Shown: positions 35,176-37,084 of the stretch, piece by piece
Layout of the letters: every line of letters starts with the position of its first letter
How positions within the stretch are numbered: position 1 is the first letter of the stretch
Sequence record: PZ179884.1
Length of the DNA stretch: 44,035 nt
From: a phage
Reading direction: 5' to 3' (one strand)
Program-made: the position numbers and the translations under genes
The notes under the pieces: generated by a model
Databases searched by the model: none
Told to the model about the DNA's origin: nothing
The model's input: the letters and a program-made list of their open reading frames with translations, nothing else

Positions 35176-35261
35176 TTATCCAACTGAACGACAGCATGAA
35201 AGCCGATACCATTCAGCTTGAAGATTACGGCATACAACTCGCGGAGATTCTCGCCCTATGA
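35172..35261 (+). CDS. Micro-ORF (29 aa)
   Basis: ATGA overlaps on both sides. Confidence 0.2.
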   Translation: MIIQLNDSMKADTIQLEDYGIQLAEILAL

Positions 35262-35551
35262 GCCTTGCAACTGACATCATGAAACGCAGCGGCCTTGCGC
35301 CGCTGTCGCCGAGGGCGAACACCCGGATATACAAGCGCCGCCGCAATGCACTGTACCCTGAGATTCAGGCCAGACGCAAAGTTGTCCGCGCCTGTGGATT
35401 CCAGAACGGAAAGGCCGTGAATCTCGGTGAGTTTAAAACAAAGGAACGCGCAGCTATCGCGAACCGGCTATTTAATTACTGGAAATCGCTGGGGTACGAT
35501 GATATTCCGACGAAACCACAGAGACGACAATACATCTGGAGACATAAATGA
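35258..35551 (+). CDS. Early protein (97 aa), basic
   Basis: ORF track. Confidence 0.45.
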   Translation: MSLATDIMKRSGLAPLSPRANTRIYKRRRNALYPEIQARRKVVRACGFQNGKAVNLGEFKTKERAAIANRLFNYWKSLGYDDIPTKPQRRQYIWRHK

Positions 35552-35988
35552 CTACTATCGCGTTTGACGGAAAGACAATGGCCTGTGATACCCGTGTTGT
35601 GTGCGGGAGTAACTGTTACAACACAGACACAAAGATATACGAGAACGAATTTGTTGTTATTGGTGCGGCTGGCGATGCAGGGGTTGGTATCCTTTTAGTG
35701 GAGGACGATAGTATTTTAGTGCCTAAGCACTACGATTTTGATTTCTCTGCCTTGGTGTGGGTTAAAGACATCGAAACGTTGTGTAGGGTGGAGTTCTATA
35801 AATCTTGGGATTGTGCTCTTAGTTTGGTTATTCAGATTGCGGACAGCTTTTCCGCCGTTGGTTCAGGCGCCCCTTATGCCCTAGCGGCTATGGAATGTGG
35901 GTATTCGGCGCAAGGTGGTGTAGCAGTTGCATCGAAGTTCGACCCTGACACCGGCGGCAAGATTATTACCAAACAACTATTAGGATAA
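35548..35988 (+). CDS. HslV / proteasome beta-subunit-like Ntn-hydrolase (146 aa)
   Basis: N-terminal MTTIAF (Thr directly after Met) and GSGAPYALAA match HslV MTTIV and GSGGPYAQAA as recalled. Confidence 0.5.
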   Translation: MTTIAFDGKTMACDTRVVCGSNCYNTDTKIYENEFVVIGAAGDAGVGILLVEDDSILVPKHYDFDFSALVWVKDIETLCRVEFYKSWDCALSLVIQIADSFSAVGSGAPYALAAMECGYSAQGGVAVASKFDPDTGGKIITKQLLG

Positions 35989-36002
35989 TTCCTACCCGTG
36001 CT

Positions 36003-36042
36003 ATCCTCCAGTTACTGCATACTTAATACGCACCTGGAGGAT
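36003..36042 (+). promoter_or_regulatory. Hairpin pairing the holin Shine-Dalgarno (ATCCTCCAG ... CTGGAGGAT)
   Basis: Perfect 9-bp inverted repeat with 22-nt loop; 3' arm contains GGAGG, 8 nt upstream of holin TTG start. Confidence 0.4.
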
Positions 36043-36047
36043 TCATC

Positions 36048-36356
36048 TTGGATAAATTTACTGAAACTGTGACGGGGTGGCTTCTCGCTGCCGCACTAGC
36101 CGGAGGGGTAATCGGACTAAGGCAACATAAGTCCGCTATTTCCGGCCCTATCGACGGCTTATTCTTTATTGTAACCGGCTTCGCTTGCGCCGTATTTGGC
36201 GCGCCTCTTGCCGCTCAATGGTTTGGCATTACCGGGGAACGCGAGATAGCGGGCCTCGGATTCATCATTGCCATTCTCTGGATGCCTATCTATTCCCGCC
36301 TTTCTGGCATCGTATCTGGCGGCGATATTGCCCGCCCAGGAGGACCACATGACTGA
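36048..36356 (+). CDS. Holin (102 aa, about three TM segments)
   Basis: TTG start with GGAGG RBS; three hydrophobic segments; directly upstream of endolysin. Confidence 0.55.
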   Translation: MDKFTETVTGWLLAAALAGGVIGLRQHKSAISGPIDGLFFIVTGFACAVFGAPLAAQWFGITGEREIAGLGFIIAILWMPIYSRLSGIVSGGDIARPGGPHD

Positions 36357-36621
36357 GCTATTCTGGTTTGCCGTAATGCTGGCAATCGGTGGCGCATCGC
36401 TGTTTAATGTATACCACCCCAGTGTTGACGACGGGTTATTTGGTCGGGTGCTCTACATCCTGACTGCTATCGTTTGCGCTGCCGGATGTATTCACCTGTT
36501 ACAGGGCAGCATGTCTCCGACGCTGCCTGAGACATTAATCACATTAGTTGCGCTGCGCCAGATTCGTCAGGCATGGCTGTCATACGGAGGACATAAGCGT
36601 GTCTCGAAACATTTCAGATAA
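36349..36621 (+). CDS. Second holin / antiholin-like membrane protein (90 aa, 2 TM)
   Basis: ATG 36349 with AGGAGG RBS; two hydrophobic helices; in-frame portion of track ORF 36268-36621. Confidence 0.5.
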   Translation: MTELFWFAVMLAIGGASLFNVYHPSVDDGLFGRVLYILTAIVCAAGCIHLLQGSMSPTLPETLITLVALRQIRQAWLSYGGHKRVSKHFR

Positions 36622-37084
36622 TGGGTTGCATTTCACCGCTGCGTTCGAGGGATTCCGAGGTACTGCGTATCGTGCTACGCCGAACGAGAAGTACCTTACT
36701 ATTGGCTACGGAAGCTATGGCCCTCATGTGTATGAAGGGCAGAAGATTACGAAGGGGCAGGGCCTCCTGTTACTGAATCGTGATATGGCTAAGGCCGTAG
36801 CTGCGGTTGACGCAGCAGCACACCATTCATTGACACAGGCACAGTTCGATGCAGTGTGCGACCTGGTATACAACGCAGGTGCTGGTGTGATTGCTGCTAC
36901 TACCGGCACGGGTAAGGCACTGCGTTCTGGTGATATTGCAACGCTGCGGGCTAAGCTGGCGCTGTTCATCAACCAGAACGGCAAACCGTTACTTGGCCTG
37001 CGTCGCCGTACTGCCGGTCGTCTGGCGCTGTTCGACGGTAAGCCGTGGCAAGAGGCGGAGGCTATCGGGAGGGCTGTTAAATGA
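36599..37084 (+). CDS. Endolysin, GH24 lysozyme-like
   Basis: Motif FEGFRGTAYRA...TIGYG; GTG 36599 with GGAGG RBS (track start 36548 is TTG). Confidence 0.65.
   Translation: MSRNISDNGLHFTAAFEGFRGTAYRATPNEKYLTIGYGSYGPHVYEGQKITKGQGLLLLNRDMAKAVAAVDAAAHHSLTQAQFDAVCDLVYNAGAGVIAATTGTGKALRSGDIATLRAKLALFINQNGKPLLGLRRRTAGRLALFDGKPWQEAEAIGRAVK

Follow-up and report, generated by a model that had tools for sequence, protein, structure and literature searches.

A gene on the plus strand of the window, the 44,035-nucleotide stretch of phage DNA analysed here (sequence record PZ179884.1), encodes at 35548..35988 a 146-residue protein that agrees with the proteasome-like PPH family in every feature tested. 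We consider it rather probable that this protein is a Thr1 peptidase that acts independently of HslU and serves the phage as an accessory fitness factor. The sighting of a PPH protein is correct but not new: the PPH family had already been described, PHROG 1040 covers it, and a related phage encodes an identical protein that carries an annotation.

The gene and its setting

The reading frame comprises 146 codons plus a stop, its earliest start codon lies at 35548, and the encoded protein begins MTTIAFDGKTMACD. Both the frame and the Thr that directly follows the initiator Met had been claimed in an earlier note on this DNA and were borne out on reading; the Met-Thr start recurs in 95 of 96 diverse relatives, with Ser in the remaining one. 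A Shine-Dalgarno-like GGAG (35538..35541, +) precedes the ATG by 6 nt, and the ATG overlaps the TGA of an upstream 97-residue ORF in the sequence ATGA (35548-35551, +), so that the two genes are translationally coupled. The frame is not a chance one, since homologs with 60–100% identity occur in 298 phage records (tblastn, GenBank phages), a profile search returned 3,851 cluster representatives, and dN/dS between Kagunavirus copies of the gene is 0.09–0.21 (Nei-Gojobori), values that indicate purifying selection. The upstream ORF itself (35258-35551; PHROG 9632) encodes a very basic protein with RRRN and KRRR-type runs; it is kept in the phage Bas76, which lacks the proteasome-like gene, and thus does not depend on that gene.

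Megablast and tblastn against GenBank phages assign the phage to the Guernseyvirinae, a group of lytic siphophages that infect E. coli and Salmonella; within them it is of the Kagunavirus type, and it is not lambdoid. An ‘early-right operon’, as the earlier note had labelled the locus, is therefore not to be expected, and only the part of that description that made the gene the last of its run survives: it is the final member of a series of small same-strand ORFs (PHROGs 9632, 343, 29624 and 6094, function unassigned). It is probably transcribed together with this series, which ends at the lysis cassette. The region was scanned for terminators and, with a consensus, for promoters; promoter counts were no better than in shuffled sequence, and we therefore claim no timing class for the gene. 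An identical protein (100%) is encoded by Bas73_0068 of Escherichia phage GertrudWoker_Bas73, where it is annotated ‘peptidase HslV family protein’. Other records label the homolog ‘ATP-dependent protease’, ‘NTN-hydrolase superfamily protein’ or ‘nucleophile aminohydrolase’, and ‘hypothetical protein’ is the commonest label.

Directly 3′ of the gene and on the same strand lie two holin genes (36048-36356, with a TTG start at 36048, and 36349-36621), a pair listed as the holin PHROGs 2359 and 2508, followed by an endolysin gene (36599-37084, +, likely start 36599). The holin genes overlap each other by 8 nt, and the endolysin gene overlaps the second of them by 23 nt. Kagunavirus and Jerseyvirus share this order of proteasome-like gene, holin, holin and endolysin. 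Rz-like spanins are encoded in Bas73, an annotated relative, inside the head module and not at the lysis cassette.

Between the stop codon of the 146-residue protein and the holin TTG, the RNA folds into a stable hairpin (36003-36042) whose stem arms occupy 36003-36011 and 36034-36042 (AUCCUCCAG...CUGGAGGAU). The 86-nt stretch containing it (35980-36065) has a minimum free energy of -22.3 kcal/mol and a z-score of -3.5, and 0 of 200 shuffled sequences were as stable. The hairpin is not a terminator, because no T-run follows the stem. The holin's GGAGG Shine-Dalgarno sequence (36036-36040) is buried in the 3′ arm, and the structure may control holin translation. Since it is retained in Bas76, the hairpin belongs to the holin rather than to the proteasome-like gene.

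Fold and family membership

Single-sequence comparisons fell short of the established families. The protein scored 15.1 bits with the Pfam Proteasome model PF00227, below its gathering score of 22.4, and with the NCBIfam HslV models TIGR03692 and NF003964 it reached 11.6 bits against a cut-off of 157.75 and 11.3 against 137. The best match of the single sequence in the PDB was BPH, the Betaproteobacteria proteasome homolog (E 0.11), and the phage-specific PHROG 1040 (‘peptidase HslV family’) matched at 1.2e-33. An exhaustive profile search yielded 3,851 representatives of 50%-identity clusters at E<=1e-3, most of them 135–160 residues long; in most of those covering the whole profile the match starts at residue 1. 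From these searches we used a diverse alignment of 96 family members, 29–41% identical to the query and with a median length of 145.5 residues. Its profile, compared with solved structures, matched HslV (4e-12), the proteasome beta5 subunit (1e-10) and BPH (1.5e-9), and hhalign aligned it to E. coli HslV (176 residues, sequence verified against PDB 5ji3) with 97.3% probability and an E-value of 1.8e-11, at approximately 23% identity over aligned columns. The comparison with HslV and beta subunits that the earlier note had called for thus uncovered clear similarity at the level of the fold.

A structure prediction made with 26 close homologs had a pLDDT of 38 and was discarded; repeated with the 96 diverse sequences, AlphaFold (AF2) returned a single-chain model with a pLDDT of 93.2 and a pTM of 0.88. 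The predicted model displays the alpha-beta-beta-alpha Ntn sandwich with an N-terminal nucleophile, and contains neither a signal peptide nor a membrane segment. With this model and the profile matches, the assignment of the protein as a predicted proteasome-like Ntn-hydrolase of the PF00227 clan superfamily stands. The earlier note had called it an HslV or proteasome-beta-like Ntn-hydrolase: the Ntn-hydrolase part holds, whereas HslV proper does not, given 11.6 bits where 157.75 are required. The top viral structural match in BFVD, A0A1W6DWU9, is 263 residues long, with its 58% identity confined to 131 aligned columns; a fusion to the upstream ORF may account for this, or a mis-called start in a Jerseyvirus record.

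PPH proteins were described as having approximately 140 residues and being encoded by tailed phages (Caudovirales) of Proteobacteria and by the hosts themselves, there for the most part in prophages; they were placed in ‘group I’, which radiates from BPH together with HslV (Fuchs et al. 2021). They have no propeptide and no S12/H5, lack helix H2, an absence uniquely shared with the derivative RPC, and keep the catalytic triad Thr1/Asp17/Lys33 together with Gly47; no AAA+ partner was found, the genomic context was uninformative and the function was unknown (Fuchs et al. 2021). The protein of the window resembles them in each of these respects. It has 146 residues, a Met-Thr start without a propeptide and no extra C-terminal domain; T2, D14, K29 and G42 align with their HslV equivalents and are conserved in 95–96 of 96 relatives; H2 is absent from the predicted model and the hhalign alignment, as is the C-terminal S12/H5 from model and alignment; and its nearest relatives are BPH and HslV, which points to group I. 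The family consensus matches 494 phage records in GenBank, and the metagenomic members sit on phage-like contigs. The comparison was made with the published family features, the reference sequence WP_042125023.1 (KEGG OC.1434257) apart. Set against the 324 nr90 sequences of 2021, the 3,851 representatives of 50%-identity clusters enlarge the PPH family at least tenfold. Phages carrying a member infect Salmonella, Escherichia, Klebsiella, Rhizobium, Aeromonas, Caulobacter, Vibrio, Campylobacter and Pseudomonas. Literature searches brought up no later paper on PPH, no biochemical data on any PPH protein and no work on the function of a phage protein resembling HslV.

Several known proteins are related to this one. 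BPH (PDB 5ovs/5ovt) has approximately 200 residues, keeps H1 and H2, bears a long acidic pore loop, is encoded by a chromosomal bacterial gene and forms tetradecamers (PMC5777263), whereas here only a single chain was predicted. Relative to HslV (ClpQ; PDB 1m4y, 1e94, 5ji3), the phage protein is trimmed in H2 and at the end of H1, as well as in the H3-H4 loop and at the C-terminus, does not conserve the HslU tail pocket or R86/R89/K90, and has no hslU neighbour; with scores below the NCBIfam and Pfam cut-offs in addition, we rejected HslV proper as its identity. RPC shares the PPH-like core without H2, but the 146-residue protein lacks the C-terminal extension of RPC, and the absence of H2 sets PPH and RPC apart from the remaining phage-encoded families of group I, AAH and CPH. 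The versions of 209–230 residues in the Stephanstirmvirinae phages ESCO5 and KP2025 look RPC-like. Longer members, of 191–230 residues and in ESCO5 with an acidic C-terminal extension, were seen at loci L005 (1707-3693, ESCO5), L013 (2714-4627, KP2025) and L018 (4170-5576); in two or three independent contexts such members adjoin a PhoH-like NTPase gene or lie one gene from it. Connectase (PDB 6zw0, 8jtu; PMC7980362), a proteasome homolog without the first helix pair, provides a precedent for non-proteasomal chemistry.

The predicted active site

The residues of the proteasome-type active site are present and conserved across the family, including the equivalents of Thr1, Lys33 and the oxyanion glycine for which the earlier note had proposed a check. 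Thr2 (codon 35551..35553, +), found in the 95 Met-Thr relatives noted above, would become the N-terminal nucleophile Thr1 once the Met is removed. Asp14 (35587..35589, +; Asp in 95/96) aligns with HslV D17 and is the equivalent of Asp17 in the proteasome and HslV, and Lys29 (35632..35634, +; invariant in 96/96) aligns with HslV K33. Gly42 (35671..35673, +; 96/96) is placed by hhalign at the oxyanion-hole glycine (proteasome Gly47, HslV G48). The GSG-type, HslV-like motif that the earlier note had pointed out is confirmed: residues 103–115 read AVGSGAPYALAAM, and within them Gly105-Ser106-Gly107 (35860..35868, +; conserved in 96, 92 and 96 of 96, respectively) align with HslV GSG, the serine being the Ser129 equivalent. 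Asp132 and Thr135 (35941..35952, +) are, judging by alignment position, the equivalents of proteasome Asp166 and Ser169, with Asp in 93/96 and Thr, Ser or Cys in 96/96.

A Met followed by Thr is a substrate for methionine aminopeptidase, and we infer that the host enzyme would remove Met1 and expose the Thr as nucleophile; Asp14, Lys29, Gly42, Ser106 and Asp132 would then complete a classical proteasome-type active site. Removal of Met is probable by analogy with the Met-Thr homolog BPH, in which exposure of Thr1 was seen by mass spectrometry (PMC5777263). Given these conserved residues and an exposed Thr, the protein is most likely a catalytically competent threonine peptidase, a judgement that draws on conservation. 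The active site of BPH is likewise intact and reacts with inhibitors, yet BPH cleaved none of the substrates with which it was assayed in vitro (PMC5777263); conserved residues are therefore no guarantee of general peptidase activity.

Predicted loss of the HslU docking surface

The earlier note had remarked that the protein is shorter than canonical HslV, and at 146 residues it is indeed 30 residues shorter than the E. coli protein (176 residues). By hhalign, the missing residues are 3 in the first hairpin, approximately 17–20 in H2 and the adjoining end of H1, 9 in the H3-H4 loop and 10 at the C-terminus. In the predicted model, a lone six-residue helix (residues 46–51) lies between strands S4 and S5 and is followed by coil to residue 65; this H1 remnant and the loop with its conserved YDFDF (62–66) replace the long H1 and the H2 of HslV (DSSP of the model and hhalign; residues 46–65, 35683..35742, +). 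Y62, F64, D65 and F66 are invariant in the Guernseyvirinae. Helix H2 is not present in the model (pLDDT 93), and the H2 residues of HslV are unmatched in hhalign. The C-terminus of the model consists of H4 (121–131) and one strand (139–143), and the alignment stops at HslV residue 166.

In E. coli HslV, the pocket for the HslU C-terminal tail is formed by Phe54, Phe57 and Gln114, Ala79 and Lys80 being further contacts (PMC6429459), and the pore cluster Arg86/Arg89/Lys90 is required for activity and is remodelled by HslU (PMC5777263). The three pocket residues map to I48, V51 and Q96 of the phage protein, positions that vary among close relatives, and A79/K80 fall in the deleted segment. Arg86, Arg89 and Lys90 align with Tyr62, Phe64 and Asp65 in a low-confidence stretch; the alignment to HslV is least reliable in the H1/H2 region, where the loss of the pocket is read. 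The genome annotation of Bas73, the closest record, lists no AAA+ unfoldase, and none, hslU included, adjoins the homologs in 17 other lineages inspected, where PhoH-type NTPases were the only NTPase neighbours, and occasional ones. On this alignment, docking of the protein onto host HslU appears unlikely, because H2, the tail-pocket residues, the pore cluster and an AAA+ neighbour are all absent.

A natural deletion in Bas76

Escherichia phage VerenaMeyer_Bas76 (PQ850632.1) lacks the whole proteasome-like gene cleanly, with flanks 97.7% identical to those of the window. When positions 35552-35985 of the window are compared with the Bas76 locus (L002 2052-2128), nothing but a short spacer separates the upstream 97-residue ORF of Bas76 from the holin leader. 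Approximately 462 phage records encode a capsid protein with 80% or more identity to that of the window, and 298 contain the proteasome-like gene, such that about two thirds of the Guernseyvirinae relatives have the gene and about one third do not. Since Bas76 and this third do without it, the gene is common but accessory, and not essential. Bas73, with an identical gene, and Bas76, a natural knockout, are both in the BASEL phage collection.

Genomic contexts and a lysis lead

The family was found in at least 494 GenBank phage records, from very different phage types. When the ORFs on either side of the gene were compared by blastp between five unrelated phages, no similarity emerged; since immediate neighbours are not homologous between lineages, no conserved partner gene is evident. 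In 8 of 17 hand-inspected lineages, however, the family member has a holin or muralytic gene no more than three genes away, and in two further ones lysis genes lie within five. The eight comprise the Guernseyvirinae; Seuratvirus yong3; the Stephanstirmvirinae; roseophage DSS3P8; a T7-like contig with a Peptidase_M15_4 gene; a lambdoid-type contig in which PPH, a small ORF and a lysozyme gene follow one another as in the window; a temperate contig with lysozyme immediately upstream; and a contig with Amidase_2. The muralytic classes involved are Phage_lysozyme, Amidase_2, Peptidase_M15_4 and ‘cell wall hydrolase’. Loci with lysis genes close by include L016 (5001-6204), L019 (4279-5432), L020 (3940-5432), L015 (4031-5423), L007 (3001-4646) and L012 (1761-4459).

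Because this pattern was noticed post hoc, a pre-specified near/far control was run, its tests designed after the pattern had been seen. Eighty IMG/VR loci were reduced to 48 clusters at 60% PPH identity, and the 64 locus sides whose flank extended over 7 kb or more were used. Pfam matches among the 176 ORFs at 0–2 kb included Phage_lysozyme three times, GTA_holin_3TM twice and Phage_lysis (Rz) once, whereas no lysis family was among the 25 families listed for the 142 ORFs at 5–7 kb. A symmetric local phmmer panel gave five lysis matches, all at 0–2 kb (4/85 sides), against 0/234 side-bins at 2–10 kb, with a nominal p of approximately 0.005, or 0.02 without the window's own lineage. The proximity signal is real but small and restricted to a minority of lineages, a weak lead and not a finding. 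It is also confounded, in that accessory genes tend to collect beside lysis cassettes. The lysis-gene context is absent from the family description of 2021 and is the only new lead here.

Family members were also found beside a tail module, DNA primase, PhoH or anti-defence genes and, in one phage, at the head of a terminal repeat, and the 0–2 kb set further contained Acb3, Acb2/Tad1-like, PhoH, RtcB and dNTP diphosphohydrolase genes. These contexts suggest that the gene often resides in accessory or counter-defence islands; a PADLOC search for defence or anti-defence assignments gave no match, and the one paper retrieved from the literature on this point, which concerns a T7-like phage and mentions host hslV, is unrelated. 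In some IMG/VR lineages, an Acb2/Tad1 hairpin domain (L020 5518-5742, minus strand), an Acb3 CBASS inhibitor or a dATP/dGTP diphosphohydrolase is encoded within 2 kb. In Caulobacter phage RB23, the family member (L014 764-1204) is gp001, the first gene of a 25-kb terminal repeat, and is present in two copies; provided that the repeat end is among the first parts to enter the cell, this position hints at an early role in that lineage.

Discussion

The loss of H2, most of H1, the HslU pocket and the basic pore cluster, together with the lack of an AAA+ unfoldase, makes action independent of HslU most likely. Its substrates would then be peptides, unfolded proteins or a single specific target, it would not operate as a degradation machine powered by ATP, and the role of the gene would be one of accessory fitness, neither essential nor structural.

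The earlier note had suggested a partnership with host HslU, and rings that dock on E. coli HslU as an alternative proteolytic core could in principle redirect ATP-dependent degradation. The homology to HslV is clear, and the closest annotated genome encodes no unfoldase of its own. To our knowledge, every host group in which the PPH-like family was found possesses HslUV, and host distribution is therefore no argument against such a partnership. The residues that HslU contacts, F54, F57, Q114, A79 and K80 (PMC6429459), nevertheless correspond to the variable I48/V51/Q96 or to a deleted segment; H2 is gone and H1 is reduced to six residues in the predicted model and the hhalign alignment; and Y62/F64/D65 stand in place of R86/R89/K90. 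The related BPH, which has lost the same residues, did not retain HslU in a pull-down (PMC5777263). The suggestion thus finds no support, and we regard such a core as quite improbable. The same note's other proposal, a decoy or inactive subunit, would have a catalytically dead protein co-assemble with HslV and poison it. HslV homology fits this idea, and a smaller subunit could in principle cap or disrupt rings, but the catalytic residues are strongly conserved across the family and dN/dS is low, neither of which a pure decoy needs, and identity to HslV is only approximately 23% over aligned columns; we judge a decoy very improbable. A prohead (capsid maturation) protease, which the earlier note had also considered unlikely, is suggested by the lack of any annotated one in the genome and by a family member located between the scaffold and capsid genes of one T7-like contig. 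The gene of the window, however, lies in the small-ORF and lysis block, apart from the head module (terminase, portal, scaffold and capsid), and viable relatives without it, Bas76 and about one third of the Guernseyvirinae, together with that position effectively exclude the role. We know of no prohead protease whose fold is related to the Ntn fold of this protein.

Two further readings would give the protein a narrower task. As a late, unfoldase-independent peptidase expressed with holin and endolysin, it could have a function linked to host lysis or to protection from lysis that comes too early, for example by trimming or degrading, after the holin has been triggered, a lysis regulator or an envelope or peptidoglycan-peptide target. 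The gene lies directly 5′ of the holin-holin-endolysin cassette in Kagunavirus and Jerseyvirus, muralytic or holin genes of varying class accompany it in the 8 of 17 lineages, and the Pfam and phmmer lysis matches fall in the nearest bin with none listed farther away; if true, the tie would explain why PPH genes lie beside differing holin and endolysin classes in unrelated siphophages, lambdoid and T7-like phages and large myophages. The signal nonetheless involves few locus sides and was tested only after it had been seen, the family occurs in many other contexts, and a tendency of lysis cassettes to border accessory-gene regions would give the same pattern. In addition, Bas76, as an isolated, plaque-forming phage, evidently lyses its host without the gene, and the predicted model offers no export signal or membrane anchor. 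We therefore consider a role in lysis unlikely, both for this protein and for PPH in general. Alternatively, the protein may be a non-proteolytic or highly specific Ntn enzyme, a connectase-like transpeptidase or amidase, possibly directed against a host defence component. Connectase is a monomeric, sequence-specific ligase without the first helix pair (PMC8665760) and thus offers a parallel to the phage protein, in which H2 and most of H1 are gone; the Acb2/Tad1-like and Acb3 genes adjoining family members at some loci, the gp001 position in RB23 and the behaviour of the gene as a solo accessory gene are consistent with such a specialised enzyme, although this reading, too, strikes us as hardly probable. 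An HslU-independent Thr1 peptidase with an accessory role remains the reading that we prefer.

In conclusion, the window holds no new kind of object, but it shows PPH to be present in BASEL phages that are well-behaved and infect E. coli K-12. With the HslU docking surface gone, as judged by alignment and predicted model, fewer mechanisms are worth testing. Should the weak link to lysis cassettes be borne out, the PPH family would have its first clue to function. The natural deletion in Bas76, with flanks approximately 98% identical, offers a practical handle on PPH function, and Bas73 and Bas76, with and without the gene, form a natural pair that allows a direct test. For work on PPH function, the Kagunavirus group, with its natural minus variant, provides a convenient system.
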